IMG/VR virus record: IMGVR_UViG_3300035183_001064
Location: 1-53,321 of that record
From: a virus
Lineage: Duplodnaviria; Caudoviricetes
Length of the DNA: 53,321 nucleotides
Reading direction: 5' to 3' (one strand)
The notes under the pieces: generated by a model
What the model saw: the letters and a program-made list of their open reading frames with translations, nothing else
Told to the model about the DNA's origin: nothing
The model's database searches: none
Shown here: positions 4,906 through 53,321 of the stretch, piece after piece
Numbering within the stretch: the stretch's first letter is position 1
Layout of the letters: each line of letters starts with the position of its first letter
Made by a program: the position numbers and the translations under genes

Positions 4906-4907
4906 CC

Positions 4908-7176: not shown

Positions 7177-7268
7177 CAGTGCAATGTCCTTGCAGAGGGC
7201 GTTCTTTTGACTTGGCCCGCGGCAGCGGGGGTCCATCGCAGAAAATTACAGTGCAAGGAGGTTTCCGT

Positions 7269-8147: not shown

Positions 8148-8161
8148 CATAGATGCAAGGG
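8113..8161 (+). repeat. Direct repeat, right flank of the DUF932 cassette
   Basis: Matches 7128-7176. Confidence 0.85.
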
Positions 8162-8816: not shown

Positions 8817-8863
8817 GGTGCGGGCAGGCAATGCGAGAGGCGTTTGTTTGATGGAGGGAAATT

Positions 8864-9037
8864 ATGGCCGGGAAAAGCAGGGTTTGGCGAAGGATAAAGG
8901 CAAAAGTGTGTCCTGAATGCGGATCTCCCACGGACCTGACGCTGATGGGGCTGGATTGGGAGGTGGAGATTTGCGAGGAGTGTGGGTGGGAGGAGCCGCT
9001 AGAGCGATATGTCCTCAACGGAGCGGATCCGCCATGA
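8864..9037 (+). CDS. Small zinc-ribbon protein (57 aa), not in the ORF track
   Basis: GGAGGG RBS; CPECG...CEECG. Confidence 0.65.
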   Translation: MAGKSRVWRRIKAKVCPECGSPTDLTLMGLDWEVEICEECGWEEPLERYVLNGADPP

Positions 9038-9200
9038 GCGTAGCGCGGGGGCTTTCCGTAGTGGACAGGCGTATGAGGGCATGATACAACGTGGTGCGGA
9101 CCGCCTCTGGTTGGGGGTGGTCCGTGATTGAGGCGCTCGGGAAGGGCGCTATGGCGTAGGGCCAGCAGGCCCGGGTGTACAGGAGAAGGAGTGATATACG

Positions 9201-10019
9201 ATGATTGCGGCGAAAAAAGAAAAAGGGGTTCCGGCGGTAGCGGTGCATACAACGCGGAAATCGGGAACGTTGTTATACCGGATAGAGCGGTATTACGAGG
9301 AAGATCCCGAACGGCCTAAAGGGATGCGCCGCACGCGCGCGCGTCTCAAAACGCTGACGGAGGATGTGGAGCGGGACGGGTTCCAGACGGTGGTGCTGGA
9401 CACGGTGACGGCGTTTGAGATGCAGGGGCGATTTCAATCGCAGTTTGTTGATAAGGTTGGATCGCCCGAACCCCGCCAGTGGTTCGCGGATAGTACGGAC
9501 TGGGTGGAGCGCATGGTCATGGTGCGTATGCCCTCGCTGGTGACGAAGTTGGGGGTGTATGGGATTGTTATTGCGCATACAGCAAGCGATCGGGATAAGG
9601 ACGGCAACGTGCTGAAATATACGCCGGACATGCCAGGGCGGTGCGCGACAAGACCGGGGTCGTTTTATAATGAGATTTACTATGTGGAGAAGAACGAGGA
9701 TGGGGAGGCCCGGTTCTTTGTGTCAGACAAGAATTATACGGCGACAACGGGGATTGGGCTGCCAAATGGGTGCCCCGCCCGGTGGTCGGAGGTGAAAGCG
9801 GCGCTGGATGCGCTGGGAATGCCTGAGTTGCATTTTTGCTGGATGTTCCATGGGCGATATGGTGCGGGTAAATCGACGGCGGCGGCAACCTGGCCTACGC
9901 CAACACTGGTGCTGCTGTTTGATTCGCCCGGAAAAGATTTGCCGTATTTGAAGCGCGGTTCCACGAGGAAAGAGGTCCAGGGGCCGGATGGCCTGCCAAC
10001 CATTGAGGTGTATTCCTGA
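9201..10019 (+). CDS. AAA_24/Sak4-like ATPase, circularly permuted
   Basis: Walker B (TVVLDTVT) and IVIAH in the N-terminal half; Walker A (GRYGAGKST) near the C-terminus. Confidence 0.8.
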   Translation: MIAAKKEKGVPAVAVHTTRKSGTLLYRIERYYEEDPERPKGMRRTRARLKTLTEDVERDGFQTVVLDTVTAFEMQGRFQSQFVDKVGSPEPRQWFADSTDWVERMVMVRMPSLVTKLGVYGIVIAHTASDRDKDGNVLKYTPDMPGRCATRPGSFYNEIYYVEKNEDGEARFFVSDKNYTATTGIGLPNGCPARWSEVKAALDALGMPELHFCWMFHGRYGAGKSTAAATWPTPTLVLLFDSPGKDLPYLKRGSTRKEVQGPDGLPTIEVYS

Positions 10020-10978
10020 TGAGCGTGCACCAAACGTACTCCATCGATTTGAAGGGCCGTGACATTACAATCATTCCGTTTGCGTGTGTCCACGCAGGGA
10101 GTCCAGGACACCATGCGTCGTTGTGGCGGCGCTTTTTGCAGCGGGCGCAGCAACCGGATGTGTACACGCTGGGGGTGGGTGACTATATGGACTTTGCGCG
10201 TACTTCGTACCGCAAAGCGGTCGCCCATGCGGGGAGTGATGAAAACTCGGTGGAGGCGTTGGATTTTTATGCGGCAAGCACGGCGCGCCAATGGGCCGAT
10301 GAGTTTATGGATATGGGCCGTGCTGAGCGGTGCATAGGATTGCTGGAGGGTAATCATTATTGGACCTTTCAGACAACGTATGCGGAAGGAGGGTTCCTGG
10401 CGGGGCAGACCACCACGCAGTTTATGGCCCAAAGGATGGGTGTACCGTATTTGGGCCACACAGCGGCCATTGTTCTTCACCTGACGGATACTGAGAGGTG
10501 GGGCGCATTGGCTGCTGATACGTATAAGATTATTGCGAATCATGGGTACGGATCGGGTGGTTCTTCGGCAAGCGCCGATTTAGGGCGGATGGAGCGTATT
10601 ATTGAACCGGCCTTCGATGCGGATCTGTACGTCACGGCGCATACCCATAGAAGGCTGGCGTATTTTATGCCCCGCCTCGCGCCGACTCTGGTGGAGTTTG
10701 CCGAAAAACCGCACCTTCTGGTGAAAGCTGGATCGTTTTTCCGCACTTACGTGCCACAATATACGACGTATGCGGACCAAAAGTTTATGCGCCCGGTGGA
10801 TTTGGGGTGGGTGGAAATACGTCTGGTCTACGAACCGCCTGGCGGAGGTGCGCCGGATCGGTGGGAGCGCCGCACGGCTGTTTGCATGGCGGCGCATGAG
10901 TTGCGGAGCGTGGCGCGGTTTGCACGGCCAGAAAAGAGGCGAAGGCGCAAAGCAAAGGGGGTGATTGTCAAAAAGTAG
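10019..10978 (+). CDS. Calcineurin-like metallophosphoesterase
   Basis: xVH, GDYMD, GNH, HG, HTH motifs (the first Asp is replaced by Cys: ACVH). Confidence 0.8.
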   Translation: MSVHQTYSIDLKGRDITIIPFACVHAGSPGHHASLWRRFLQRAQQPDVYTLGVGDYMDFARTSYRKAVAHAGSDENSVEALDFYAASTARQWADEFMDMGRAERCIGLLEGNHYWTFQTTYAEGGFLAGQTTTQFMAQRMGVPYLGHTAAIVLHLTDTERWGALAADTYKIIANHGYGSGGSSASADLGRMERIIEPAFDADLYVTAHTHRRLAYFMPRLAPTLVEFAEKPHLLVKAGSFFRTYVPQYTTYADQKFMRPVDLGWVEIRLVYEPPGGGAPDRWERRTAVCMAAHELRSVARFARPEKRRRRKAKGVIVKK

Positions 10979-11040
10979 TTGTAGGGTATGGTGCGTGCAC
11001 CATTGGCGCGGTCACATCGTGTTTTGGTTTTTTACACTTT

Positions 11041-11108
11041 TGCTCTGGGGCTACAGAGCATCCGCATGCGCGGTAGAAGCCCACGACTGAAGGCGTGGGA
11101 ATAGCCAC
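11041..11108 (+). repeat. 68-bp triple-hairpin element, copy 1 (3' part resembles an IS200/IS605 end)
   Basis: Aligns without gaps to 38705-38772(-) and 44812-44879(-). Confidence 0.85.
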
Positions 11109-11134
11109 ACAACAATGCTAGAATGGAGGCATAT

Positions 11135-11686
11135 ATGGCCAAATTAGATTGGTCCCATGTAAAGAGCAACTTTCTGTATCCTAAAGGCGTGTATCATGCG
11201 ATTATTAGCGGGGCCGAATACATCGAAGTGAAAAACGGAAAGATCGCGTTGCGTGTTCCGTTTCTTATTACGGCTCCGGCCCAGTACGAGGACAAAAAAT
11301 ACAGCGAGTTGTTTGTGATTGGGACGGATGATGATCCGAACGCCGAAGAGCCGGAAACGTGGTACAACTCGCCTGGCGCGGGCGGTATCAAGCGGTTGCT
11401 GTCGTATGGCGGGGAGGACTTTCCGGAAGACACGGATGATATTCCGGGGCTGATAGAGGGCTGGAACGTTGGCTTTTTGCTGGGCCAGCGGAAGCGCAAG
11501 GACACGGGCGATCTGGCTAACCAGATTATGAAATATGTGGATCCGGCGGATGTGGAGGCTTTTGTGGAGGAGCCAGAGGAGGCAAAGGCGTCCGCCAGGG
11601 GTCGAGCCGCCTGGGGTGAAGAGGATGAGGATGAGGAGCCGAAACCCAGGGGCAAAGCGCCGCAGGCAAAAAAGGTGCGACGCTAA
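11135..11686 (+). CDS. DUF669-like single-stranded DNA-binding protein
   Basis: N-terminal YPKGVY.A.I (OB-fold pattern), acidic C-terminal tail, located near Sak4-like ATPase. Confidence 0.7.
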   Translation: MAKLDWSHVKSNFLYPKGVYHAIISGAEYIEVKNGKIALRVPFLITAPAQYEDKKYSELFVIGTDDDPNAEEPETWYNSPGAGGIKRLLSYGGEDFPEDTDDIPGLIEGWNVGFLLGQRKRKDTGDLANQIMKYVDPADVEAFVEEPEEAKASARGRAAWGEEDEDEEPKPRGKAPQAKKVRR

Positions 11687-11737
11687 ATAGATAGCCCTTC
11701 ACACCCTCCCTCCCTACAGGAGTTTTGCGCCGGTGCC

Positions 11738-12133
11738 ATGCATCGGCGCATTACTCACAGCAACCCAGAACAAATGCAATGCGGCCTAGAAGGAGAAACG
11801 AGTATGATGAGTTTTGCCAAGGCTGATGTGGTGCAGGCGGAGGACTTCAAGGTGCTGTTGGACCTTAATTCACACCTTCACATAGCGAACCATCTGGCGC
11901 ATTGGCCTAGCCCGCAGGTGCAGATGACTGAAGGGCTGGTCACTGGCGGCCTGCTTGTTGCGCTGGCGGAATTGTTGTTGCGGTCAGGGCTAAGCACGCT
12001 GACCATCAACAGGGCGGACATTGAGCAGATGTGTGAGGACAATTTGCAGATTGGCATTGCTGGTGGAGAATCGCTTACGGTGACTCTGCAAACACGGCAA
12101 CAAACAGCGCCTGCACAAGGGAGAACACACTAA
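11738..12133 (+). CDS. Hypothetical protein (start probably ~11804)
   Basis: AAGGAG RBS before MMSFAK; TAATG overlap with the next gene. Confidence 0.65.
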   Translation: MHRRITHSNPEQMQCGLEGETSMMSFAKADVVQAEDFKVLLDLNSHLHIANHLAHWPSPQVQMTEGLVTGGLLVALAELLLRSGLSTLTINRADIEQMCEDNLQIGIAGGESLTVTLQTRQQTAPAQGRTH

Positions 12134-12531
12134 TGCTTGTATTGGGAAAAGATTCTTTTGATTACAATCCGGATCTTGCCCTGGCGACCTTAACTATGGA
12201 CAGTACGGTGCGGATGCAGCTTGTTCTGGAAGAGCTGCATTGCGAGGAAATGTCACATTGGGTGGACATGCTTTTGATGGAGTGTTTTGTATTGTCCATC
12301 ATTGCCAGGTTGTTGCAGCACTATGGCAATGGCGCTCCAATAGAAATACCCATAGCGGTGCAGGCCGCAGAGCCAGGACGTGCGCCGGGCAAGGCCATGC
12401 CCGAGCCGTTGGGGCTGTTGAAGGCGGCGTTTGATTGCCGGGCGGGGCGTCTCCGATTGTGGTTGGATGGTATGAACACACAGAGCACGGAAACAGAGGG
12501 AAAACAGACGGAGGAAAAAACCCATGAGTAA
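12133..12531 (+). CDS. Hypothetical protein
   Basis: Translationally coupled on both sides. Confidence 0.65.
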   Translation: MLVLGKDSFDYNPDLALATLTMDSTVRMQLVLEELHCEEMSHWVDMLLMECFVLSIIARLLQHYGNGAPIEIPIAVQAAEPGRAPGKAMPEPLGLLKAAFDCRAGRLRLWLDGMNTQSTETEGKQTEEKTHE

Positions 12532-13036
12532 TACACAGACGTCGAAGGTACAGGCTATTCGGGGCGGTGAAAGATCGGGATCGGTGCAGCGGTGGAACGA
12601 CACGTGGAACCGGAAGGAAAATGCGGAGTTGGAGCAGGAAATGGGCGCGCAAGTGCATATAAGCCTGTCTGTTCCGGCGGAGTGGGCGTGGACGGAAGCG
12701 CATGAAGAGTCCATGCGAAGAAAGCTGGACCTGGTGTCTGCCGCAGCCGTGCGGATGGCGGCGGGCATGGCGAAAGGGACAATGAAATACAAAGTTGACT
12801 TTTCCCAGTATAGCTTGCAGGAGTTTGTAGAGTTTGTGTTTGATGAAACGGCGGATCTCATGAACCTCGTAAGCGCCTTGAAAGAGGCTGTGATGCAGCG
12901 CGCGGGGAAGGCTTCCGGGTCCATCTCCGTGCGGCCTGCCGCCACTGGCGAGGAGGCTTTGGGGGACAGGCCTGGGCTTGAGGCGGCCCGGTTGTCGGAG
13001 GCGCTGGCGGCATTGGAGCAAACGGAAAAAGCGTAG
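12524..13036 (+). CDS. All-alpha NTP pyrophosphatase (MazG/dATP-dGTP diphosphohydrolase-like)
   Basis: R...G..KY.....L.E......DETADL pattern; lies directly before the polymerase. Confidence 0.45.
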   Translation: MSNTQTSKVQAIRGGERSGSVQRWNDTWNRKENAELEQEMGAQVHISLSVPAEWAWTEAHEESMRRKLDLVSAAAVRMAAGMAKGTMKYKVDFSQYSLQEFVEFVFDETADLMNLVSALKEAVMQRAGKASGSISVRPAATGEEALGDRPGLEAARLSEALAALEQTEKA

Positions 13037-13097
13037 GAGCATTGCATGCGGTGGGGCCGTATGGCCCCACCATCTTGCTTAGGGCCTGGGGGCAGGT

Positions 13098-14771
13098 ATG
13101 CCTGTACATGTACCAAACGAGATACGACCATTCGCACCCGTCGTGGTTATTGGGGAATCGCCCGGAGAGTGGGAGATTATGCGAGGCGCGCCCTTCGTTG
13201 GCCCGGCGGGATCACTCCTTGAACAGTTTTACAAAAGTGCGGGGCTGACCAGGGAGGATATATCGTTTTTGAATCTTGTTCCGATGGAGCTGCATGGTTC
13301 GGCGCTGCAAGAAGCGGCCCGATCGGCGGAAATGCAAAAAGAGCTGCACCGCAGTTTACAGCGGTGCAAGGGCGCCCGTGTGATCGTGCTGTGTGGAGAT
13401 GTTCCTTTGCGGGTGCTGTTGAACATGCAGGGTCACGAAGGCATTACGGCGTGGCGGGGAACCATCTTTGCCCCCGCTTTATACAACCAGAAATTGCAGA
13501 AGTTGTGTCCCGTGCAGTCCGGCTTGCTGGCGGTGCTCCCTGTCTACCATCCGGCGTACACGCTGCGAATGCCGCGCACGGCGGCTGCGCAGTTTCGGGA
13601 CTGGTCTGTTGTGGCTCAGATTCTGAAGACGGGGCGTGCGCCAGAACCGCCACAGCGGAGGCATATTACGTATCCGTCCCGAGCAGAAGTGGAGTGGTTT
13701 ATGGATTTTGTCCGCTCGTTTCCGGTCAGTACGCCTCTAGCGTTTGATATTGAAACGATTCCTTCCCTGGGCCGCATTGTGTGCATTGGGTTTGCCGTGC
13801 GCACGACGGAATCGTTGGTGCTGGACTGGAGCGTGAAATGGCAGCGGGAGGCGGCGAGGGCCTTGTTGCAGTTGCCCAATCCTAAGCTCGGGCAGAATGG
13901 GCACTACGATTTGTTTTATTTGTATACGGATGAGCATCCTACGCCTGTACGCAATTATTGGTGGGACACGATGTATTTGCACCACCAGCTTCATACAACG
14001 GAGCCGCATTCCCTGGCGTACCTTGCGAGCATGTACACGTACACGCCGTATTACAAGCATGAGGGTCGGGCCAGTGGCCGGGGTATTGGGGACTTGAATG
14101 TGAAACTGGCGGAATATTGCGGGCTGGATTGCTGCGTGCAGGTGGAAGTGTTCAATGCGTTGCACGCGGAGCTTGTGGCGGCGGGGCCGCAAGCCCTGCG
14201 GTTTCACAAGGAGCATTATCAGGAGATGTATGCGCCCCTGTTGGATGTATCGCTTGCAGGATTGCGGGTAGACTCCGCCTTTTTGGGTAATACCGGGGCG
14301 CAAATGGAAAAATCGCTGGCGGCGCTGCGTGCGGAAATTGAAAAGGACGCGCCGGTGTTTGGCAAAAACAGCATTTCCAACGAAAAGTTGCGGACGTGGC
14401 TCTACACCACCCACGGCATGCCGAAGGAGTGGGGCAAAGAAAGCGAAAAAACGGGCGACAAGAATCTCAGTGTGAGTGAAGCCACATTGCGGCGGCATAT
14501 GCTGCGGGATACGAAGAAAGCGCAGAGGCTGGCCCCGGTGTTGGAGCGCATTTTGAAGTTTCGGGAGTTGCATACGTTGTCGCGCTTTTTCGTGAAAAAG
14601 GATCTGATTGATCCTGATGGGTACGTGCGGGCGCAATATTCGTTGAATACGGAAGCTGGACGCTGCTCATCGAAAGCAAATCCCCGTTTGCGGGGGCGCA
14701 ATTTACAAAACATTCCGCCAGAAGTCCGCCCCGGTTTTGTGCCGGATGTGGAGATTCGGCGGGGTGTGTGA
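13098..14771 (+). CDS. polA: Family A DNA polymerase, N-terminal part: UDG-like domain + 3'-5' exonuclease + thumb/first palm segment
   Basis: GESPG..E..RGAPFVG and YHPAY (family-4 UDG); FDIET, QNGHYD, YCGLD (Exo I-III); TEAGRCSS, NLQNIP..VR..FVPD. Confidence 0.9.
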   Translation: MPVHVPNEIRPFAPVVVIGESPGEWEIMRGAPFVGPAGSLLEQFYKSAGLTREDISFLNLVPMELHGSALQEAARSAEMQKELHRSLQRCKGARVIVLCGDVPLRVLLNMQGHEGITAWRGTIFAPALYNQKLQKLCPVQSGLLAVLPVYHPAYTLRMPRTAAAQFRDWSVVAQILKTGRAPEPPQRRHITYPSRAEVEWFMDFVRSFPVSTPLAFDIETIPSLGRIVCIGFAVRTTESLVLDWSVKWQREAARALLQLPNPKLGQNGHYDLFYLYTDEHPTPVRNYWWDTMYLHHQLHTTEPHSLAYLASMYTYTPYYKHEGRASGRGIGDLNVKLAEYCGLDCCVQVEVFNALHAELVAAGPQALRFHKEHYQEMYAPLLDVSLAGLRVDSAFLGNTGAQMEKSLAALRAEIEKDAPVFGKNSISNEKLRTWLYTTHGMPKEWGKESEKTGDKNLSVSEATLRRHMLRDTKKAQRLAPVLERILKFRELHTLSRFFVKKDLIDPDGYVRAQYSLNTEAGRCSSKANPRLRGRNLQNIPPEVRPGFVPDVEIRRGV

Positions 14772-15070
14772 AATGGGGGGAACAAGAGATGACGGTGGAA
14801 GAAACGGCAGTGTTTTTTGGCATGTTGCACCGGGATGCCAGCGCCCCGTGGCCGTATAATTGGCGGGAAGCGCCAGTGCGCTATGTTATTCCGGAAGAGC
14901 AGGAGTATGATGGGGAGGGGCGGCCCTGTGGGCCGATGCCGCAATACCGCCTTGTTGGGTTGTGGGCGTTCGATGAGGCCACCCAAACAGTGCAGGTGGC
15001 GCTGCGTCGCGTTGGGGCCGAGCCGGAGCCTGAGCCGCACCAGCAGGAGGGTGTTGCCGTGGCGGCATAG
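14768..15070 (+). CDS. Hypothetical protein inserted between the two polymerase halves
   Basis: GTGA overlap with the polymerase N-half; no HNH/LAGLIDADG/intein motif seen. Confidence 0.6.
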   Translation: MKWGEQEMTVEETAVFFGMLHRDASAPWPYNWREAPVRYVIPEEQEYDGEGRPCGPMPQYRLVGLWAFDEATQTVQVALRRVGAEPEPEPHQQEGVAVAA

Positions 15071-15094
15071 CGCCGCATGTCTGGGGGAAGGCAA

Positions 15095-15952
15095 ATGAAA
15101 ACGGTATTTCTAAATATGGACTTGAGCCAGGCAGAGCACCGGGTGGTGGCCTTGCTGAGCGGCGATGAGACGTTTATGCAGGAGGCGTTTCGCCCCCTTG
15201 AAGGCGGCATTGATACGCATAAAGAAACGGCTGCCCTGATTTTTGAGGTGCCATATGACCAGGTGAATGCGGAGCAGCGATATGTGGCGAAAAAGGTGGT
15301 CCATGGCTCTGAACGCCTGATGGGCGCACGAAAATTGGCGTCTACCATGCGGAAGGATGGATACAATATCAAGGAGCACCAGGCGCAACGGTATCTGATT
15401 CAATTGCTCAAAAAGAAACCGGGCCTTATGATGTACATTCGGCGCGTCAAGCGTGCGATTCATGAAACGCGGACCCTCACGAATCCTTTTGGGCGGCGCA
15501 TTTATTTTGAGTGGGATCGTTTGGACGATGCGCTGTATCGGAAGGCAATGAGTTTTTTGCCCCAGTCTACGGTGGCGGATATTGTGAATGTTCTGTTTTG
15601 GAAGCGCCTGTATAAGTGGTTTGCGGAGAATGGATACGGGCGCGTCAATCAGCAAGGGCATGATTCCCTGCTTATGAGCGTGCAAATCGTGCGCGTGTAC
15701 GAGACCATGCAATATATTGCGGAGGAGCTGGCTCCCGCGCAGGCAAAAATCAAGTACCGGCTGCCAGATACAGGGGAATATCTACCGCCCATGATTATTC
15801 CTGTGGAGTTTTCCGTGGGGTGCAATTGGGGAGCTTTGACCTTGAAGTATACGGCGCTGCCCACAAAAAAGCAGTGCACACAAGACTTGCGGGCGCTGCT
15901 TCAGGCGGCGCGTGGAGCTGGTGGCAAGGCACATTCATTTGGGGGCAAGTAG
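15095..15952 (+). CDS. polA: Family A DNA polymerase, C-terminal palm/fingers part
   Basis: Motif A DLSQAE, motif B RYVAKKVVHG, NPFGRR, PQSTVAD, motif C QGHDSL. Confidence 0.9.
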   Translation: MKTVFLNMDLSQAEHRVVALLSGDETFMQEAFRPLEGGIDTHKETAALIFEVPYDQVNAEQRYVAKKVVHGSERLMGARKLASTMRKDGYNIKEHQAQRYLIQLLKKKPGLMMYIRRVKRAIHETRTLTNPFGRRIYFEWDRLDDALYRKAMSFLPQSTVADIVNVLFWKRLYKWFAENGYGRVNQQGHDSLLMSVQIVRVYETMQYIAEELAPAQAKIKYRLPDTGEYLPPMIIPVEFSVGCNWGALTLKYTALPTKKQCTQDLRALLQAARGAGGKAHSFGGK

Positions 15953-16104
15953 CCAGCAGACGGGCAATCAGGCTGGGGCCGCCGTCAAACGGCTCGCGCG
16001 CTTGCTGCTGCAAATGCTTGCGGATCCCTGGCGGCAAGGTGCGAATCTCCGATAGCCTTTGGGGGACGGCATCCTTCTGGCCTGTTCACGGGCGGGGCCT
16101 GGCG

Positions 16105-19100: not shown

Positions 19101-21015
19101 GGCCAATAACACGCTGCGCCGCCTCAATCGTGACCGCGTCTTCAGGAGTAGCGCCCCGGGTGCCGGTTGGGGCCGGTGCAGTACGACCGCTGAGGCCCTG
19201 CAAGTATTCTTCTGCGGCTTTGCGCCCTTGAGATTGCAGAATAGCCTGCACGTCCCACAAGGTGTCTGCATCGTGGGCAAAGTCCGGGCTGTCCGGGTAG
19301 TATTGCCTGTAGAGATCCCGCGCGCTATTGCGGTAGGCTCGCGCAACGGCGGCGGACACGCTGCTGGGCTGCGGCTGCGCACTGGGTGGGGGCGCGCTGG
19401 GCGGCAAGTCCTTCCACTTCCTTTGGTCCTGCGCGGCGGGCTGCGGTTGACTGGTTTCCGGCGGGCGCTGCTCCAACGCGGCCTGTGGCGTCGGTTCGGC
19501 GGCCCCGGAGGCCTGGGGCGCAGCCCCGGATGGTCCCTTGCCCTGCATGGCTGCGCGCTCCTCGATATATCGCCGAAGGGCGCTGGCCTTGTCTATATCT
19601 GTCGGTGCGATGGCAGAGCCGTAGGTGCGGCTTGCTACGGCTGCCTCGTCATTAAGACTGCGCTGCTCTCTTTGTTGTTGGAGGAGCGCCTGGGTTTCCG
19701 CCTCAATGCGTTGTGCATTGGTTTGTGCTCGGGGAGCCCCAATCTTTGGATCTTGTTCCATTGTGGCTGCGCGCTCTTCAATATACTGCTGAAGGGTGCG
19801 GGCCTTGTCCATATCCGTTGATGCGATGGTAGAACCGTAGGTGCGTCTTGCGGCTGCCGCTTCGTCATTGAGACTGCGTTGCTCGCTCTGTTGCTGTAGA
19901 TGTGCTTCGTAGCCCGCCCTGGCTTCCTCTGCAATGCGTTGTGCATTGGGCTGTCCTTGGGCCCCACCCTTTTGGCCCTTGCCTGGCGTTGCTGCGAGCT
20001 CATCGATATACTGCTTAAGGGCGTAGGCCTTGCGCATATCCGTCAATGCTACGGCAGGGCCGTAGGTGTGGTTTGTTACTGCCGCCATCTCGTCATTGAG
20101 CTTGCGTTGCTCGCGCTGTTGTTGGAGGAGCGCCTGGGTTTCCGCCTCAATGCGTTGTGCATTGGTTTGTGCTCGGAACCCCCTCTGTGGCTCCTCTTCC
20201 ATCGTTGCGGCGCGCTCCTCTATATATCGCTGAAGGGCGCGGGCCTTGTCTATATTTGTCGATATGGCAGGAACGCCGTAGGTGTGCCTTGCTTCCGCGT
20301 TAGCTTCCAATTGGCGCTGTTCGCTTTGGCGTTGCAGATATTCTTCGTGGCGCGCCCTGGCCTCCTCTGCAATGCGCCGTGCATTTTCGGCATTCTCTGC
20401 ATCGATTTCCGCTTGTATTCGCGCCGATCGTTGCGCTTGCCGTTCGGCGTTGAGCGCGGCTCGCTGCGCCTCCCGCTGCGTTTTCAAGGCCTGACGCTGC
20501 TTGCCTCTCACAATATAGCCGCCGAGTCCGCCCGTAGCGGCAGAGAGCGCCACGCCAGGCCCCATGTCGGAGAGCGGTACGCCCTCACTGGCCTGGTACA
20601 AAGCGTTTTCTGCTGCCGCAGTAAGCGCGCCTTTTGCAACAGCGTACATTTTGGACGCCGCCGGTCCGGCAGGGCCAATGGTAGCGCCCCCCATCGCAAT
20701 GGCGGTGCCAAGAAGGTTTCTCTTTTCCCGCTGCTGTGTGGCAAGTTCAATTTCTTGGGCCACCTGCTCGCCAATACCAGCACCAGCAATAAGGCCGGGA
20801 ACGCCCGCAAGAACGCTACCGACCAGGGGTCCGGCCAGGCGGGCGGCTGTGGGCGACCATTTTTGCACGGTGGTAAGCCGAGGCTTCGGTGCTGGTGCGG
20901 GCGGTCCTTGCGGCTCTAGAGCGCGAAGGGTTTCAAGAATGGTTTCTTCCGTGTCATTATCGCCAAACTCGATATACGCGCCCGGCTCATAGGGGTGCTC
21001 AACGTACTTCGGCAT
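16105..21015 (-). CDS. Large internal virion/ejection protein (1636 aa)
   Basis: Last of three large Ala/Gly/Gln-rich genes after the tail module; four internal ~72-76 aa repeats. Confidence 0.75.
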   Translation of the reverse strand: MPKYVEHPYEPGAYIEFGDNDTEETILETLRALEPQGPPAPAPKPRLTTVQKWSPTAARLAGPLVGSVLAGVPGLIAGAGIGEQVAQEIELATQQREKRNLLGTAIAMGGATIGPAGPAASKMYAVAKGALTAAAENALYQASEGVPLSDMGPGVALSAATGGLGGYIVRGKQRQALKTQREAQRAALNAERQAQRSARIQAEIDAENAENARRIAEEARARHEEYLQRQSEQRQLEANAEARHTYGVPAISTNIDKARALQRYIEERAATMEEEPQRGFRAQTNAQRIEAETQALLQQQREQRKLNDEMAAVTNHTYGPAVALTDMRKAYALKQYIDELAATPGKGQKGGAQGQPNAQRIAEEARAGYEAHLQQQSEQRSLNDEAAAARRTYGSTIASTDMDKARTLQQYIEERAATMEQDPKIGAPRAQTNAQRIEAETQALLQQQREQRSLNDEAAVASRTYGSAIAPTDIDKASALRRYIEERAAMQGKGPSGAAPQASGAAEPTPQAALEQRPPETSQPQPAAQDQRKWKDLPPSAPPPSAQPQPSSVSAAVARAYRNSARDLYRQYYPDSPDFAHDADTLWDVQAILQSQGRKAAEEYLQGLSGRTAPAPTGTRGATPEDAVTIEAAQRVIGRTQETPLTATERLTMAKALGGPDAPYGLSSDPTKLTKVGDLPDEALATAFLRARRAMAPTPPQGPSTLAAERAIARASAEGPINPTTGRVQLSALPPHKPSQLLGPSEEVIPVGQALKEGPTTMALADSAAQAKDLGAPPKALLAQVPLDEYIRAERMARLNSLMSANMTRGGRAMLTRASNKAFMAHRDGVQAALEHGLPIHPDNLEIYGLTGGPANTLPSEIRDTRKLADFLAQQSVRGEKTNLVLKRVFNALQDTPLSVAKVFGDETGSTTIISDMSAYISDALTRLKGRLSPETRPFGPSGRTLAELEDRAAIAWATLRGITKVGTLPKEVVNPLVEIDMNQFLLAQKWDTALTNAAQYLTPAELSFLRHNGRGLVRGTTAIPDNMPNLRVYMGVYKDVMNDVHAMARGPGRLDTNYDPQYFTQKLTPAARQALISKNANPALREAILKASNVAEKDAWTIEQKLNDLFYDELTTRHYGPLERERQLQLPESVVVNGKRVQVLDVDGLNVPRQYVRMAARRIGAAMVGGPNTQDFFDKLHALTIDRAGANWEVASKQFKSTVQLLQGVEYDDAAARFLKKGDWFVDLLNSGLLTESAIPNALAGWVPAAALRGLSKAFGIMKDIHAARLGLLQGVRKDQIDEILQMGDKFGLWLKQGYLEGLLGPSATIPLSQRQYAKGAQTGIRAVLEAHPARQLARQSGQVVTKVTGVDAINRDINKLGAIAVNDALDEALAAAKNKQPQMLADLADFLHWSPEHVNRVLNTGLTEEDRAWAARVFISRSNAMYSLAVDTRRPMTHPALRAVFAFTSIVRSLGTLASLMAQQARRGNWKPITRLVFGLTSTMALNDYIKDTIHQRDRRDQGYMDLLAQSIFMSGLLGMQGEIAQDVMSSLKRDRTAQLGREFAIGHLPPAWSQLDRLGAILAYWAQGEYEKRNRAARRLFPVLDTLMVQLYGASPLDGPIARPPLSAPRRPALPRLQQRGLSRTLQKGLSQP

Positions 21016-25281: not shown

Positions 25282-26355
25282 TTACACCGCCCTCATGGGC
25301 ATTCTGGTGGGCGGCCTTTGTCCACGCGGAGCACCTGGTACAACAGGTCTGCGGGGCTGTCTGCCGCCCCAACCAAAGGCAGGGGGATTTCCCCCATACA
25401 TGCCGCCACCTGCACCGCCCCAACCAAACGCAGGCGGGTTGTTCGCCATGCCGCCGGAAAGGCCAATAGGAGCAAAAATGTTGCCTCTAAACACAGGGCT
25501 GTAAGGGCCGCCTGAAGGGGGGAGGGCATCGATGGTGGGCATGTTCGTGTTAAATCGCCCTCTGGGGTTCGAAGGCATCCCAGACATCGCACCACCTCCA
25601 GCGCCAGGATCGCCTTGTGCAACGCCAGGGGGGAGCGCATCAATGGTGGGCATATTCGTATTAAATCGCCCTCGCGGGTTTGATGGCATTCCAGCCGTCG
25701 CACCACCTCCAGGGTAGTTCGATGTGACGCCAGGAGGGAGGGCATCAATGGTAGGCATGTTCGTATTAAATCGACCTCGTGGATTTGGCGGCATTTCGCC
25801 CGTGGCGTTGCCTCCGGGGTAGTGCTGTATGACGCCAGAGGGAGGTGCATCGATGCCGGGCATGTTCGTGTTATACCGACCTTTGGGGTTCGCTGGCATT
25901 CCTTCCATTGCACCAGCGCCAGAGTAGCCTTGGGCGACGCCAGGAGGAAGTGCATCGATAGTGGGCATATTTGTGTTGTACCGCCCCCCTGGAAAAGGAA
26001 GCGCATCTATGGTGGGCATATTCGTGTGATATTCGACCCCAGGCCCTGTGGGGAAGCCATTTGTGTAGCCCCCTGGCTGCATTGTCACGACATCGCCGCC
26101 ACTAAAGCCCGCGCCTCTAAAACCTGAATACTGGTTATTGCCAGAAGGATTCCACTGCGTCACATCGTTATAAGCGCCCGTGTATGGGCCGGGGATTCCA
26201 TACCCGCCGAATCCACCGCCTCCACCAAAAGGAACACTGGCCTGGACCGCACCATTCAGACCGCCTGCATACCACATGGATGGACTATACCCGTAGGCGC
26301 TTTGGGCTGCGAAGGGTCCGCCGATACTCGCGGGAAAATACATTGAAGCTGCCAT
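25282..26355 (-). CDS. Gly/Pro-rich repeat protein
   Basis: Six copies of NTNMPTIDALP-like motif; repeats are visible at DNA level. Confidence 0.75.
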   Translation of the reverse strand: MAASMYFPASIGGPFAAQSAYGYSPSMWYAGGLNGAVQASVPFGGGGGFGGYGIPGPYTGAYNDVTQWNPSGNNQYSGFRGAGFSGGDVVTMQPGGYTNGFPTGPGVEYHTNMPTIDALPFPGGRYNTNMPTIDALPPGVAQGYSGAGAMEGMPANPKGRYNTNMPGIDAPPSGVIQHYPGGNATGEMPPNPRGRFNTNMPTIDALPPGVTSNYPGGGATAGMPSNPRGRFNTNMPTIDALPPGVAQGDPGAGGGAMSGMPSNPRGRFNTNMPTIDALPPSGGPYSPVFRGNIFAPIGLSGGMANNPPAFGWGGAGGGMYGGNPPAFGWGGRQPRRPVVPGAPRGQRPPTRMPMRAV

Positions 26356-38472: not shown

Positions 38473-38502
38473 ATAATATCACTCACTGTGTGTGAGTGTC
38501 AA
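38473..38502 (-). promoter_or_regulatory. Sigma70 promoter upstream of the capsid gene with an operator-like palindrome in the spacer
   Basis: TTGACA-CTCACACACAGTGAGTGA(18)-TATTAT with TGn extended -10; the spacer matches the 51030-51306 array motif. Confidence 0.75.
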
Positions 38503-44811: not shown

Positions 44812-44879
44812 GTGGCTATTCCCACAACTACAATCGCAGGCTTTTACCGCTTATACGGACGCTCTGTAGCCCCAGAGCG
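44812..44879 (-). repeat. 68-bp triple-hairpin element, copy 3
   Basis: Gapless alignment to copies 1 and 2; compensatory C-G at the base of hairpin 1. Confidence 0.85.
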
Positions 44880-45080
44880 AGAATGCAAAGCCGCCCAATC
44901 CAAAGCCGCTTTGCCCACAGGCTCCCGCTCCACCCAGGTAGAATCGCCGCAAAGATCCTGACGAATCCAATTGTTGACGGCAAACCGCAATACCACATTT
45001 GCCGTTGTCGCCAGAGCCTTCGCCATATGCTGGACCCAAGCCTGCTCTTCATCAGACAAAGTTACTGTTACACGCCGCAT
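44844..45080 (-). CDS. Ribbon-helix-helix DNA-binding protein
   Basis: MRRVTVTLSDEEQAWVQHMAK...TANVVLRFAV; start lies just after a promoter (leaderless-like). Confidence 0.65.
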   Translation of the reverse strand: MRRVTVTLSDEEQAWVQHMAKALATTANVVLRFAVNNWIRQDLCGDSTWVEREPVGKAALDWAALHSRSGATERPYKR

Positions 45081-45087
45081 TGCCCCA

Positions 45088-45138: not shown

Positions 45139-45215
45139 AGGGCCGTTATTTGTCCTCCTTCCCCAAAGCCTGCGGGGGCGCCTCCTCTCCCGCAGGCTCC
45201 CGTCCACTGCCCACA

Positions 45216-45340
45216 CTACCCCCGCCACCCACACCAACCACACCAACCACACCATCCACACCAACCACACCAACCACACCAACCACACCACCCACAACAC
45301 CCACACCATCCACACCACTCACGCCACCCACGCCACCGTG
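45216..45340. repeat. 9-bp tandem repeat (CACACCAAC)n
   Basis: Direct reading; the - strand is G-rich (GGTTGGTGT)n. Confidence 0.9.
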
Positions 45341-48399: not shown

Positions 48400-49692
48400 T
48401 CAGACGTGGCATTGAGCCGCCCCCTGAGTCGCTTCGACGGGTTCCTGCTTCCGACCGCCAACGCGGTTCGATCCACAGGCCATCTGGGCTGACACAGGCA
48501 GACCACCTGCCAGCATCCCAACCGAAGCGTCGGTTGTGTCCCGCCCTTCGTCTCGCCATATTTGCATCCCGCGAGAAAGGATGTTGATTGCGCCGACCAC
48601 ATCGGCGTTGTCCTCGAACCCACATGCCACGCACACGAACCTGGCTTGCGTTCGGCGGTTGTCCGCCGAAATATGACCGCAGCACGGGCAGGTGCGGCTG
48701 GTGTTGTGAGGCGGCACCACAATGAGATGGCCGCCTTTCCACGCCAGCTTGTACGCCAGTTGGCAGCGAAACTCGTACCAGCCTTGATCAAGGATAGACT
48801 TGTTCAGGCCGGACTTGGCCCGAACGTTGCTTCCCGGCGCATCTACTGTACCTGCCGCCGACCGGGACATATTCCGCACTCGCAAGTCCTCGATGCAAAC
48901 GATCGCGTGGTTTTTGCTGATCGCGGTCGAGGTCTTGTGCAGAAAGTCGCGGCGGACATTGGCAATGCGGGAATGAATGCGCTGGACGCGGGCTTTCGCC
49001 TTCTTCCAGTTGTTACTGAGCTTGACTTTGCGGCTCATGGCCTGCTGAGCTTTGCGCAAGGCCACCTCATGCCGCTTGAAGCTGTTGATGGGGGCGTAGA
49101 ACGCGCCGTCCGAGAGCGTCGCGAACCGGGCAATGCCCATATCAATACCCACTGCCCCACCCTTCGGGATCGGCTGAGCAACCTCTCGTTTGGTCTGAAT
49201 GGCAACAAACCACTTGCCACCGCTCAGGCTGACGGTGACGTTGCGCAGATCGCCCAGCACTTTGCGGCTGTTGCGATAGCGCAGCCAACCAAGCTTCGGC
49301 AGAAAAATGCGGTTGTTGGCCTGATCGAGCTTGATTGCCTTCGGGTTTGGATAACGGAAGCTGTCCGACCGGCCCTTCTTCTTGAAACGCGGAAAGCCAG
49401 CACGTTTGGAGAAGAAGTTGGTGTAGGCCCGCTCCAAATCTCTGAGCGCCTGTTGCTGCGAATGAGCGGGAGCATCGGCCAGCCAAACCGTTTCCACGCT
49501 ATTGCGCCACCCAGTAAGCAGCTTGCACAGCCCGGCATAACCCAGTTTCTTCTCGCCTTGCTCGTAGCGATCCTTCTGCAACGCCAACGCCTTGTTGTAG
49601 ACAAACCGACACGAGCCAGCGAAGCGGTGCATCTGCCGCTCCTGCTGGCCGTTTGGCATGAGTTTGAATCTAAAGGCCTGGAACCGCTGCAT
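48400..49692 (-). CDS. tnpB: TnpB RNA-guided endonuclease
   Basis: HTH N-terminus (CRFVYN), GFPRFK, RuvC D (GIDMG), E (IEDL), D (NADVVGAIN), zinc ribbon CPCC/CVAC all intact. Confidence 0.95.
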   Translation of the reverse strand: MQRFQAFRFKLMPNGQQERQMHRFAGSCRFVYNKALALQKDRYEQGEKKLGYAGLCKLLTGWRNSVETVWLADAPAHSQQQALRDLERAYTNFFSKRAGFPRFKKKGRSDSFRYPNPKAIKLDQANNRIFLPKLGWLRYRNSRKVLGDLRNVTVSLSGGKWFVAIQTKREVAQPIPKGGAVGIDMGIARFATLSDGAFYAPINSFKRHEVALRKAQQAMSRKVKLSNNWKKAKARVQRIHSRIANVRRDFLHKTSTAISKNHAIVCIEDLRVRNMSRSAAGTVDAPGSNVRAKSGLNKSILDQGWYEFRCQLAYKLAWKGGHLIVVPPHNTSRTCPCCGHISADNRRTQARFVCVACGFEDNADVVGAINILSRGMQIWRDEGRDTTDASVGMLAGGLPVSAQMACGSNRVGGRKQEPVEATQGAAQCHV

Positions 49693-49714
49693 GGCTCAAT
49701 TATACTTCTGGTCT

Positions 49715-49870
49715 ACGGGCAATGACAAGGATATTCGACATGGACGGCACTGCGTTTTCAGGATGCACGTCCATTTGGTCTTCGTGACAAAATACCGCCG
49801 TGACGTGTTCGATGGCGTCGCCATCGAACGGCTGCGCGTGATCTTCGCCAAGGTCTGCGCCGGCTTTGAA
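49715..49870 (+). pseudogene. tnpA: Truncated IS200 Y1 transposase
   Basis: RHGRHCVF.MHVHLVFVTKYRR..F; apparent start is ACG; ends after AKVCAGFE, before the catalytic region. Confidence 0.85.
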
Positions 49871-49904
49871 CCGCCTCTGGAACGCCAGGTTGCATAGTAC
49901 AGGG

Positions 49905-49937: not shown

Positions 49938-50380
49938 GCCGTCGCGCTCCCTTTTTTGCGTTCGCTCTTTTTGCCCGCCTCAAAGGTGTGAATAAACCGC
50001 CGGGCCAGGATCGTCGCGGCATATTCCTCCGCAAAATGGTCGTCCGCCCGCCAATGGTGCATCGCCTCCAGAATGGGATGCTGTAGCTCGTGGACAATCG
50101 TTAGCTCCAGGTCCGCATCCGTGCGCTTCGCGGTCACCTCACAGTTGATGACGATGTGCGCGTACTGGTACATCGCGCTGGATGTAATCTCCATCTCCAC
50201 CAGCTCGTTGGGATTTTCCGTAGGTTCCCACGCGGTGTCCGTGTACGTAAACGTAAAGTCCCAGCCGGACCAGTACCCCATGCGGTCTATCCACCGGCGG
50301 AACAAGCGCCGGACACGCGCTTTTTCCTGCGCAAACTCCTTTTTTGTCACGGCTGGGATCCTCCCAAATCGGAGAGGCAA
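49919..50380 (-). CDS. Hypothetical protein with HExxH (IVHELQH) metallopeptidase-like motif
   Basis: Motif present; C-terminus runs into the IS end. Confidence 0.55.
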   Translation of the reverse strand: MPLRFGRIPAVTKKEFAQEKARVRRLFRRWIDRMGYWSGWDFTFTYTDTAWEPTENPNELVEMEITSSAMYQYAHIVINCEVTAKRTDADLELTIVHELQHPILEAMHHWRADDHFAEEYAATILARRFIHTFEAGKKSERKKGSATASTTPA

Positions 50381-50559
50381 TGGTAGATCATGCGCCGGAT
50401 AAGGTCGCTGGTCGTAATGTTTTTCCAGGTCGCCACCCGTTGCAGTTCAATCCATGTGGGGTATGGCAACCACATATGGATCCGTTTCATTTTGCTGGCC
50501 GGAGGCAGCGAAGCGGTTGGAGGACCGCCCATACGGCGGGCCGGTTCAACTTTTGGCAT
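50347..50559 (-). CDS. Ribbon-helix-helix DNA-binding protein
   Basis: GAAAGGAG RBS; MKRIHMWLP...ELQRVA....TTSDLIRRMI. Confidence 0.7.
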   Translation of the reverse strand: MPKVEPARRMGGPPTASLPPASKMKRIHMWLPYPTWIELQRVATWKNITTSDLIRRMIYHCLSDLGGSQP

Positions 50560-50575
50560 AGACACGCTCCTTTCG

Positions 50576-50668
50576 TTATCGGTGTATGAGCCACAGGACA
50601 ACAAACATAACGGCAAAAACAGCGAGGTTGCTGACAATAAGCCACGCGGGTAGTTCCGTCACAGACAT
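50576..50668 (-). CDS. 30-aa single-pass membrane peptide, not in the ORF track
   Basis: AGGAGGAG RBS; MSVTELPAWLIVSNLAVFAVMFVVLWLIHR. Confidence 0.65.
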   Translation of the reverse strand: MSVTELPAWLIVSNLAVFAVMFVVLWLIHR

Positions 50669-50717
50669 GGTGCTCCTCCTTTCGTTTGGGATCGTGCCGA
50701 CACACGCGGCGACACAC

Positions 50718-50746
50718 ATTTTGCTTTGCCGCACTTCTTTTGTCAA
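50718..50746 (-). promoter_or_regulatory. Sigma70 promoter for the leftward operon
   Basis: TTGACA-17-CAAAAT. Confidence 0.55.
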
Positions 50747-51029
50747 GTCCGGCGATCAGCGCCGCCGTCTACGGCGCGTGCATCGGCGGGGTGCGAGGCA
50801 TTTCGTGATGATCATATGGCGCATGGCATGGCGCGCGGTGCGCGGTGCGCGGCATGCGGCGTGGTGCGGTGCATGGCGTGCGGGGCAGGGCAGGGCAGGG
50901 ATTATCGGCTTGATTTTGTTGAAATACCTGTGGCCGTTTGGAGGGGGGATCTTTTGTGCGACCCCTCCCGCGCCGGAGTCCTCCCGGAACGGATCCCGCT
51001 CCGCCCCCGGGTTGGGGCCCCCCTACAAA

Positions 51030-51306
51030 TCTCACTCACAGTGAGTGAGAAATGGGCGGAGGACGCGGCTCACGGAACCATCCCCTACAATGGGCGAGAC
51101 ATTCCCCATAACAGGCGATACATCACTCACAGGGTGTGAGATATCACTAACAGGGTGTGAGATATCACTCACAGGGTGTGCAATATCACTCGCAGTGAGT
51201 GAGCTATCACACACAGTGTGTGGAATATCACTCACAGTGTGCATAGTATCACTGCCAGTGTGGGAGCATCACTCACCGTGAATAGCCATCACGCACAGTG
51301 TGTGAG
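51030..51306. repeat. 21-bp palindromic operator/iteron-like array
   Basis: Perfect palindrome TCTCACTCAC-A-GTGAGTGAGA at 51030-51050; ATCAC-led units at 51122, 51143, 51164, 51185, 51206, 51227, 51248, 51268, 51288. Confidence 0.9.
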
Positions 51307-51515
51307 GCTCTGGTTGGGGTGCGGGCCCGGTTCGGGGAGGGTTCCGGGGAGGGAGCGGGCCCGGAGCGGGGCCGGGCGAAGAAAGGGCGAAGGGAAGGAG
51401 ACAATATCACATTTTGTTTGTCAAGGTGTTTTTGTAAACACGTTGTAAGTGCGCGAAATCATTGATGTTTTGGGGTACTTGCGTCACAATTTGTTCGGAG
51501 CTACAAACATGCCCA

Positions 51516-51848
51516 TCGCGAAAGTTAAACTTTTTGTAACTTTTTGCAAAACTTTCGCGACACACAAACGTGTCGCCCGGGGAAAGAAATCCGGGCGTAA
51601 AGCGATACAACCAGTAGCTGCTGCTAAGCCCCAAACTGGCAGCAGCAAAGGCGGAAGAACCCTAAGGGATATTATCCCTGACCATAAGTAAGCCCCGTAA
51701 GACGGGCTGAACGTGTACGGGCTAACGTCTACTGGTGAGGCGTGGGCCAGAACCAAGCCCGCTTGGTGACACAAGTCCCCCAGGGAGGACTCATCCCGAG
51801 TCTCGCACCAAGCCGCCTTGGATGTGAACCTGTAGCCCACTATGTCTC
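51516..51848 (+). ncRNA. Putative structured ncRNA, allele 2
   Basis: Covarying helices relative to 77-412. Confidence 0.8.
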
Positions 51849-51898
51849 AAAAAGGCTGTTAATTTCGTCAACAAGTGAAAAACAACCAGGAGGAAAAC

Positions 51899-52486
51899 AT
51901 GGCAGCAAAAAAAGCCAAAGAAGGCTTCTGCATCTCTTTCGTTAGCGAGAAAGTCTCGCTAACAGCAGCAGAAATCGACAGGATCAAAGCTTGGAAATGG
52001 TACGACAATGATCCGTACCATGGCCAATGCTTATTGTCTCAATGTACGCCGCATTTAGGCGTACTGCTGGAGCAAATTACAAACGCTTATCGTGCCAGTG
52101 AGCCGATAAGTGTTAAAAGGGATAGATGGGGTTCCGAGAAGGAGATTATTACTCCGTCCGAAGCAATAAACCGCTTCGGCGGATTTTCCCTAAGGTACAG
52201 CAGATTAACTTCGCTTCCAGGTTCGCCAACGCCGGAAGCGGTTTTAAAAAGCAAAAATCCGGCGTGCCAGCACATATGGCGCGCCTTAAAAGAGCTCGAG
52301 TTTTTGCGCCCTGATTTAATCAGAGTGACTAAAGGCGGCGTTGTGCGCCTTAAAGGCCACGATCCCAATTTTGGCACTAAAACAAGTGTTGGTAGCCGCT
52401 CTAAGGCTGCTATAGATCCAGCAGCCTTAGACAGTATACTTTCGCAGTATACGCGGGGAGCCGCTTCAGGGAAGCGGAACCGCTAG
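51899..52486 (+). CDS. Homolog of 473-1063
   Basis: AGGAGG RBS; high amino-acid similarity. Confidence 0.85.
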   Translation: MAAKKAKEGFCISFVSEKVSLTAAEIDRIKAWKWYDNDPYHGQCLLSQCTPHLGVLLEQITNAYRASEPISVKRDRWGSEKEIITPSEAINRFGGFSLRYSRLTSLPGSPTPEAVLKSKNPACQHIWRALKELEFLRPDLIRVTKGGVVRLKGHDPNFGTKTSVGSRSKAAIDPAALDSILSQYTRGAASGKRNR

Positions 52487-52514
52487 TGTACCTACCCATA
52501 GGGGGGGAGGAAAA

Positions 52515-52703
52515 ATGATGACGCTCACGGCAAGAGTTTTACACTATGCTGCGAAGGGGTGGGGCTTGCGTGAGGCTATCACGCAGGCTCAAAAAGATGC
52601 TGACGAAGATGCGCGCACGATAGCGCGCACAAAGCGACTACTGGCATGTTACAAATACACGCCAGTAGTGCAGAGCCGATTACGGCACCAAAGAGACGAA
52701 TAA
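52515..52703 (+). CDS. Homolog of 1060-1245
   Basis: GGAGG RBS; near-identical protein. Confidence 0.8.
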   Translation: MMTLTARVLHYAAKGWGLREAITQAQKDADEDARTIARTKRLLACYKYTPVVQSRLRHQRDE

Positions 52704-52791
52704 GCATTCGTTTTGTGTTTGGTGCCATTCCGTGGCAAGTCAACAATTTAACAAGCTCCTGCCGGAAAAAGGCAGGAGCAAGGAGGAAGGT

Positions 52792-53205
52792 ATGTTTTCC
52801 GTAAAGTTTACGTGTGTCCAAGCAAATCACCACATTATTTGTATCGAGGAACCCCCAGCGGGGCTTAGCGCCTTGGATGCAGCTAGAGCCCAATTGGGTT
52901 CGGACATTCGGACTGTAGCGCCTCCTTTGGGGTTCTACAAGTATGAGATTGCTTGCTCTTTAACGGAAGAGCAAGCAAGACGGGCAACAAACCAATTTGG
53001 CAAGCAATGGAGTACTTGCGTTCGCGTTCTGCGTGGGGCTTTTAACAATTGCGTCATTCATACGTGGAATAGACTTCAGTCTAATCCCACGTGTGCAACG
53101 CTAGACTATAATATTGATCGAGATACAATTGTGGAAGCCTGGCTAGATGCCGGGGCTCCCAATTTGTGGGTTCCTCCACAAGAGGAACCCACGGAAGCGG
53201 AATAG
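52792..53205 (+). CDS. Paralog family A, homolog of 1332-1745
   Basis: AAGGAGG RBS; high similarity. Confidence 0.9.
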   Translation: MFSVKFTCVQANHHIICIEEPPAGLSALDAARAQLGSDIRTVAPPLGFYKYEIACSLTEEQARRATNQFGKQWSTCVRVLRGAFNNCVIHTWNRLQSNPTCATLDYNIDRDTIVEAWLDAGAPNLWVPPQEEPTEAE

Positions 53206-53225
53206 GGTATAGGCAGCCTACGATG

Positions 53226-53321
53226 AAGGCCAGTTTAGCGAGGCTCTTGCGAAACTGGCCTTTTCTGTTTTGTGCAATGGAGGCCAGTTTAGCGAGGCTC
53301 TTGCGAAACTGGCCTTTTCTG
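53226..53321 (+). terminator. Two tandem 54-bp hairpin/U-tract units
   Basis: AGGCCAGTTTAGCGAGGCTCTTGCGAAACTGGCCTTTTCTG twice. Confidence 0.65.

Follow-up and report, generated by a model that had tools for sequence, protein, structure and literature searches.

Does the array of 21-bp units in the divergent intergenic region of this phage genome share a DNA-binding protein with the capsid promoter, whose spacer is filled by the same motif, and what would that protein do at the two places? The DNA analysed (the window) spans the full 53,321 bp of an IMG/VR virus record. The source of the runs was microbial-mat metagenomes and two public runs were compared as contigs. The features are located in Table 1.

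Table 1. Features of the array region, the capsid promoter and the candidate binders (positions in the window)
Feature	Position	Strand	Remarks
Major capsid gene, 308 aa	37432..38358	-	homologue family matches and gene order
Capsid promoter: TTGACA, 18 bp, TATTAT, extended -10 TG	38473..38502	-	11/12 consensus matches
Solitary motif copy	38478..38497	-	fills the capsid-promoter spacer; overlaps TG and the first -10 bases
Second RHH-like ORF, 79 aa, alternative binder	44844..45083	-	just upstream of the TerS-like gene
RHH-like protein, 70 aa, candidate binder	50347..50559	-	second ORF of the leftward operon, after GAAAGGAG
Leftward promoter-like site, TTGACA-17-CAAAAT	50718..50746	-	stringent promoter scan
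Perfect 10-1-10 palindrome of the array motif, TCTCACTCACAGTGAGTGAGA	51030..51050		72 bp left of the array
Two decayed units, in 21-bp phase with the array	51080..51121		counted by hand against the unit consensus
Array, nine 21-bp units, all in the same orientation	51122..51308		Tandem Repeats Finder, weight matrix, direct reading
AT-rich stretch	51396..51566		32-44% G+C over 51400-51549 versus 57% for the genome
Second leftward promoter-like site, TTTACA-16-CAAAAT	51411..51438	-	promoter search

Tandem Repeats Finder gave a period of 21 with 8.9 copies and 74% matches over 51122-51306, and a core at 51122-51241 with 5.7 copies and 82% matches. The units start at 51122, 51143, 51164, 51185, 51206, 51227, 51248, 51268 and 51288. 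The initial annotation had described one perfect palindrome followed by nine units phased at 21 bp. The nine units and the palindrome were recovered, but only the first six spacings are 21 bp, the last two being 20 bp, and the palindrome is out of phase with the array (its centre lies 92 bp from that of the first unit). The unit consensus is ATCACTCACAG(G/T)GTGTGAGAT. ATCAC is invariant in all nine units and TATCAC[T/A] is found in five of them. The left half, ATCACTCACAG, is well preserved and the right half is decayed. The units are quasi-palindromic, with 14 of the 21 consensus positions self-complementary. To the left, the decayed units at 51080 and 51101 are identical to the consensus at 13/21 and 10/21 positions, respectively. 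Since they lie in phase, the array once had at least 11 units.

The single-strand fold of the array region was more stable than that of shuffles (z -3.6). This does not discriminate between readings because any palindrome-rich DNA would show the same. A search of Rfam gave no match at the gathering score and one spurious microRNA match inside the array (E 0.0034). Several identities were dropped. A CRISPR array was excluded by the absence of spacers, and a protelomerase target by the odd centre of the palindrome and by the fact that no such gene was found. The half-site arrangement does not fit LexA or CRP boxes.

The distribution of the motif was then established over the whole window. Allowing up to three mismatches to the consensus, 12 matches were found on both strands, against a shuffle mean of 0.01 (100 shuffles, none of which reached 12). 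They comprise eight of the nine units (51268 was missed) together with the palindrome and the copy at 38478, each counted on both strands. The genome-wide weight-matrix scan proposed with the initial annotation bore out its claim of a second site. With a matrix built from the nine units, the capsid-promoter copy scored 26.4 bits and the palindrome 24.5 bits, and the best site elsewhere in the window 8.9 bits. The units themselves score high by construction; this does not apply to the palindrome or to the promoter copy. No fourth locus was found in the window by either the matrix or the consensus scan. Searches with half-sites added nothing convincing: the ATATCAC at 51404 is one of 11 such heptamers in the genome. 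Since the motif is confined to three loci, a single sequence-specific binder serving the array and the capsid promoter would be the economical reading, and it is well supported by sequence. In the rarer-variant contigs of run X2, positions 51008, 51025, 51027, 51086, 51089 and 51093 differ and the palindrome is unchanged, which is consistent with constraint but is not significant with so few differences.

The promoter at which the solitary copy lies is close to consensus. Sigma70-like sites were searched on both strands (51.6 kb), a -35 match of at least 5/6 and an overall match of at least 10/12 being required. Only four sites were retained, all of them intergenic, and the capsid promoter was the best. 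The solitary copy had been placed between the TTGACA and the extended -10 of the capsid gene, and this arrangement was confirmed. The promoter lies 115 bp upstream of the 308-aa capsid gene. This gene was recognized from its relatives and from gene order (portal, 272-aa gene, then capsid gene). The window protein itself matched Phage_capsid_2 below the cut-off (E 0.0042) and had no sequence match in the PDB; among 11 aligned homologues, six matched Phage_capsid_2 (best E 1.2e-08) and four Phage_capsid_4. Because the motif covers the whole spacer and the edge of the TG/-10, the promoter would be repressed when the site is bound.

Conservation of this site was assessed using the sole close relative found, G001, which covers about 16.1-48.2 kb of the window, i.e. 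the part without the array region. Its capsid is 95% identical to that of the window. From the -35 to about +10 of the capsid promoter, 35 of 37 columns are identical, as compared with 5 of 20 just upstream. One of the two differences makes the site more symmetric. As far as one aligned relative can tell, the promoter with its motif copy is a conserved island. The distant relative G002 has its own 13-bp palindrome, CTGCACAGTGCAG, as a single copy in the spacer region of its capsid promoter, so a dyad at this position is not unique to the present phage. No comparable array was found in the G002 record, which is rated 96% complete. A different palindromic motif, CGTTTAAACG, occurs at a dozen or more places in G002 (L025-L027, about 11750-11830 and dispersed), and three of its copies surround the capsid promoter of that phage.

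The initial annotation had set a DNA-binding array against a translated heptad repeat with codon-level conservation. No such repeat was found. Because the differences between units show no codon periodicity (5/5/7 by codon position in the six units in exact register, 9/6/10 in all nine), five bases in a row never vary and two units lack one base, which shifts the reading frame, the units are non-coding as judged from their sequence. Two reading frames do stay open through most of the array, and ORFs of 78 aa and 70 aa overlap it. This would suit a translated 7-residue repeat, but both ORFs fall below the threshold of the codon-usage score (trained on long ORFs). Neither such a repeat nor a functionless tandem duplication would account for the recurrence of the motif 12.6 kb away in a non-coding promoter spacer, where it is conserved. 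Both are regarded as hardly credible.

The position of the array on the genome was examined next to the question of the genome ends. Bases 1-127 of the window are exactly those of 51440-51566; beyond this word, the ends share 81-84% identity for some 1.85 kb. A contig from one public run (depth 154) matches 50400-51566 at every base and continues into the window-start sequence. The window-end version has a depth of about 19 in the same run. We infer a circular map of 51,439 bp, which the assembler overran through the 127-base word, continuing with sequence of a second, rarer strain. The CheckV estimate of 54% completeness is then probably too low. The array had been placed at a genome end. Because the ends of the window are an assembly wrap, and the contig joins the array to the window-start variant, this location is not supported. 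The early genes of the rarer strain differ strongly (window 1-1882 versus 51440-53321).

On this map, the codon-usage score places genes on the plus strand over 467-16055 and on the minus strand over 50637-16105. Transcription diverges at a single point in the genome, the 1.2-kb gap in which the array lies; the initial annotation had likewise put the array between divergent transcription units. Recognizable phage genes code for a family A DNA polymerase in two pieces with a UDG domain, an AAA_25 helicase, TerL and SU10-type adaptors. No tRNAs were found in the window. The phage also carries an IS200/IS605 TnpB insertion, which lies within the leftward operon (48400-49897) and includes a TnpB of 430 aa on the minus strand, a Y1 transposase fragment on the opposite strand and a promoter-like site of its own (49728-49699). 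Two in-frame tandem repeats were noted, one of 216 bp (x3.3) at 19550-20263 in a 1636-aa minus-strand ORF and one of about 105-111 bp (x4.3) at 25516-25968 in a 357-aa minus-strand ORF. The products of both ORFs are likely tail or fibre proteins.

Two leftward promoter-like sites flank the array. Transcripts from the right-hand one (51438-51411) would cross the array, and the ATATCAC half-site at 51404-51410 lies beside it. Both sites share the unusual -10 context CAAAATGTG, a 9-mer found twice in the window against 0.76 expected; 15 of 100 shuffles also reach two occurrences. No copy of the motif was detected by weight matrix at the left-hand site (50746-50718), and no recognizable promoter was seen around the perfect palindrome. 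Plus-strand G-rich tracts flank the array at 50820-50900 (with GGGGCAGGGCAGGGCAGGG at 50882-50900) and 51309-51395, and are quadruplex-prone in sequence terms. A structured leader RNA precedes the first rightward gene (51540-51865, and 101-472). When the two strain versions were aligned, 15 of its 90 predicted pairs were kept via changes on both sides. It matches no Rfam family. The gene that follows (51875-52486, and 467-1063) codes for an orphan protein of 203 aa: a search of 5.8 billion proteins gave four homologues, of which two come from this record, and among 1.84 billion there was a single representative cluster. A profile search brought no remote relatives, and the structural model (pLDDT 45) is too poor for use.

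This setting gives the main rival explanation its footing. The array may be an iteron-type replication origin, whose initiator would bind the direct repeats and open the AT-rich stretch to the right; the conserved left half would then be the site of one subunit, and the palindromic copies, including that of the capsid promoter, would be operators bound by dimers. In iteron plasmids, the iterons are the sites of Rep monomers, and inverted repeats of the rep promoter are those of Rep dimers (PMC5397158), a rule that the pairing of direct and inverted repeats would fit. As in the RepA, RepE and pi replicons, the repeats are tandem and direct (nine units, within the 17-22 bp expected), lie about two helical turns apart with one half well preserved, and are accompanied by inverted copies. 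An AT-rich stretch with short AT-rich repeats begins 90 bp to the right, and its part at 51440-51566 is identical in both strain variants. The array also sits at the single divergence point and near the minimum of the cumulative GC skew (about 50 kb), but the skew is confounded by gene orientation. An iteron origin would have its AT-rich unwinding element directly beside the repeats; here a tract of 90 bp with 74% G+C lies between the array and the AT-rich stretch that may serve as one. No initiator family (Rep, lambda O-like) was found among the 82 proteins scanned with Pfam and PHROGs, although an unrecognized initiator may be encoded; the first rightward protein is the orphan with the poor model. 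No cluster of DnaA boxes was seen. The inverted copy stands at the capsid promoter and not at that of a replication gene. An origin of this type is thus considered possible but unlikely.

The preferred reading calls for a phage-encoded binder, and a candidate lies beside the array. Downstream of the 50746-50718 site come a 30-aa hydrophobic ORF, GAAAGGAG and the ORF of a 70-aa protein, the first sizeable gene to the left. This protein had no significant match in Pfam or PHROG, the best being a CopG-like PHROG (E 0.19). With the ESM Atlas, feature matches of 0.90-0.92 were obtained and the ten best that bear a family all belong to the ribbon-helix-helix (RHH) clan, although a third of shuffled proteins likewise score ten of ten. 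The AlphaFold2 monomer (mean pLDDT 68.8) has two helices (33-45 and 50-65) that come after an extended stretch. Nearly all top Foldseek matches of this model are RHH proteins (YiiF, ORF56, PutA, ParG, Arc, CopG), with a poor best E-value of 0.89. The homodimer model scored 0.55 against 0.00 for the best of three controls, a pass that may itself be driven by likeness to RHH dimers, which are common among solved structures. Of proteins solved as pairs, 21 of 30 attained this mark; of those solved as single chains, none of 23 did. The homodimer runs agreed in at least 94% of contacts, with a partner pLDDT of at least 67. The two chains of the model meet in an antiparallel ribbon (residues 25-31); along it, I27, M29 and L31 alternate with R26, H28 and W30. 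Four weak lines thus agree on a predicted beta-alpha-alpha RHH fold that would dimerize through an antiparallel ribbon.

The presence of a predicted RHH gene near the array therefore agrees with what had been claimed, but the count of three such genes does not: some support was found for two (50347-50559 and 44844-45083) and a third was not identified. The second ORF aligned to RHH_1 over the whole 39-position model at an E-value of 0.07, below the cut-off, and has an 88% identical homologue in G001. Neither of the two gave a significant match to an RHH sequence family or a sequence match in the PDB. The 44844-45083 protein, another small protein (52515-52703, 62 aa) or a host factor could also be the binder. 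That the binder is the 70-aa protein is a reasoned guess guided by the structural models. Next to the second ORF, a separate array was noted at 45210-45337, just upstream of 44844-45083 and the TerS-like gene. It consists of 14 tandem copies of a 9-bp unit, CCCACACCA, and no such array was found in G001 with Tandem Repeats Finder. It may be a binding array for the 44844-45083 protein or a pac-related site.

The array comes closest in kind to the operator and iteron arrays known from small regulators of phages and plasmids. The operator of Arc is 21 bp long. As with Arc of phage P22, a partly symmetric site of 19-21 bp fills the spacer of a near-consensus promoter, and the phage encodes a protein, with an N-terminal arm, that is predicted to form an RHH dimer; no sequence similarity to Arc reached significance. 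According to PMC2724298, the smallest DNA-binding form of RHH proteins is a dimer of dimers, and Arc at its operator, which overlaps the Pant/Pmnt promoters, hinders the formation of open complexes. A partly symmetric unit of 21 bp fits such a tetramer site. Arc acts on one operator at its own divergent promoters, whereas here 9-11 putative tandem operators lie away from any strong promoter and a further one lies at the distant promoter of a structural gene.

Omega, the RHH ParB of plasmid pSM19035, offers a second comparison. According to PMC9499535, its sites are 7-10 heptads (5'-WATCACW-3') arranged in arrays over promoters; this one RHH protein acts at several loci and represses promoters. 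It needs a ParA partner. The invariant ATCAC core of the array units, five of which contain TATCAC[T/A], recalls the omega heptad. The shared pentamer may be a coincidence, and is taken as a lead and not as a test. Omega heptads are contiguous, whereas ATCAC recurs here every 21 bp and the two intervening heptads do not fit WATCACW, so that nowhere in the array do four or more contiguous 7-bp repeats of this form occur. The array is also not at a strong promoter, and no ParA-type ATPase partner was found in a six-frame scan for Walker A motifs. By analogy of function, Arc at Pant/Pmnt and omega of pSM19035 would be the closest counterparts.

ParR arrays lie at a strong promoter, unlike the array described here. 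In ParG/parH of TP228, short degenerate boxes form an array that the RHH protein occupies (abstract of PMC3130281). The present locus resembles ParG/parH and ParR/parC in pairing an array of short boxes with an RHH protein, which is here a candidate only, but it lacks a motor gene, and no par-operon promoter lies at the array. A further rival explanation is a packaging (pac) or centromere-like partition site. Its binder would be the small terminase or a centromere-binding RHH protein, which the promoter copy would tie to late expression. Omega-like centromere-binding proteins do bind arrays and repress promoters (PMC9499535), and the second RHH-like ORF directly precedes the TerS-like gene. 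The lack of a ParA speaks against partition: in the six-frame scan, Walker A motifs in real genes were those of a Sak4-like protein, the helicase and TerL, with no ParA-type motif, and no ParA or ParM family match was obtained. Among the ORFs scanned with Pfam and PHROG, there was no integrase and no plasmid-maintenance or ParA/ParB family. Against pac, the array is 6.3 kb away from the TerS-like gene. A site of this sort is judged improbable.

As to the identity of the binder, the direction of regulation and the function of the array, we infer, with a probability of about one half, that the units are Arc-type operators of the 70-aa phage protein, which would shut the capsid promoter, and that the array is a high-avidity hub for the same protein. 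Like Arc, the 70-aa RHH protein would bind each unit as a dimer of dimers. Placed over the spacer and the TG/-10 edge, it would keep the near-consensus capsid promoter shut. On the array, 9-11 units two helical turns apart would give a cooperative, high-avidity complex on one face of the DNA. This complex could block leftward transcription from 51438-51411 toward the operon of the binder itself, i.e. autoregulation by roadblock. By holding most of the protein, the array could also set a threshold for the release of the capsid promoter.

Several observations speak against RHH operators. The site at 50746-50718, which is the 70-aa protein's own promoter-like site, carries no motif, and a missing operator at its own promoter is unusual for an RHH repressor. 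The palindrome lacks a visible promoter, and the array stands apart from any strong promoter. The initial annotation had proposed that one protein links the array to capsid expression. Of this proposal, the link between the sites is well supported by sequence, with the motif at three loci only and a promoter copy conserved in G001, while the identity of the binder is guessed.

Relatives of the array were sought in several collections. A scan of IMG/VR with the motif gave one match, due to chance, in a coding region of an unrelated virus. Scans guided by proteins (the 203-aa, 153-aa, helicase and RHH proteins) led to G001 only or to nothing, and the aligned 203-aa protein, used as query on the metagenomes, had no match. 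With a two-unit DNA pattern, metagenome and genome collections gave chance matches or unrelated repeats among the matches listed. Those with multiple copies among them (L057, L109 and L173) are unrelated repeats, L109 being apparently eukaryotic, and two Chloroflexus matches, also among those listed, lie inside an ordinary coding region. G002-G005 share structural genes only, with no homologues of the small proteins and no comparable array. Close homologues of the 70-aa RHH protein (P0005, 96% identical) and of the 203-aa protein (P0004, 66% identical) are encoded on two contigs, of 9,119 bp and 18,220 bp, respectively. The same searches bear on a further explanation, that the sites are bound by a host transcription factor through which the phage would sense the state of the host. 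The pattern search brought up no host operator among the matches listed, all of them chance or unrelated, but a two-unit pattern is ill-suited to single host operators. The RHH candidate adjoining the array speaks against a host factor, to which only a slight chance is given.

The Arc-type operator reading may be extended in time. The array could be a decoy by which the number of genome copies sets the time of late expression. The capsid promoter would be kept shut by an Arc-like repressor, a product of the first leftward genes, and each replicated genome would add about ten high-affinity tandem operators but a single promoter operator. Past a replication threshold, free repressor would collapse and the capsid promoter would fire sharply. 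This extension is held to be rather unlikely. If true, it would couple late transcription to replication with the host RNA polymerase, without a late sigma factor or activator.

Phages that rely on the host RNA polymerase must delay their structural genes, and the solutions known are activators, antiterminators, new sigma factors and clamp coupling. The lineage described here is uncultured, podovirus-like and from microbial mats, and orphans make up nearly all of its early genes. Should the array prove to be just an ordinary operator cluster or an origin, the result would be a useful annotation and nothing beyond that. The candidate types of circuit are a repressor roadblock, a decoy and origin coupling. 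The circuit would be a simple one: a strong late promoter gated by an operator of which further copies stand in a large tandem array at the genome's regulatory centre.
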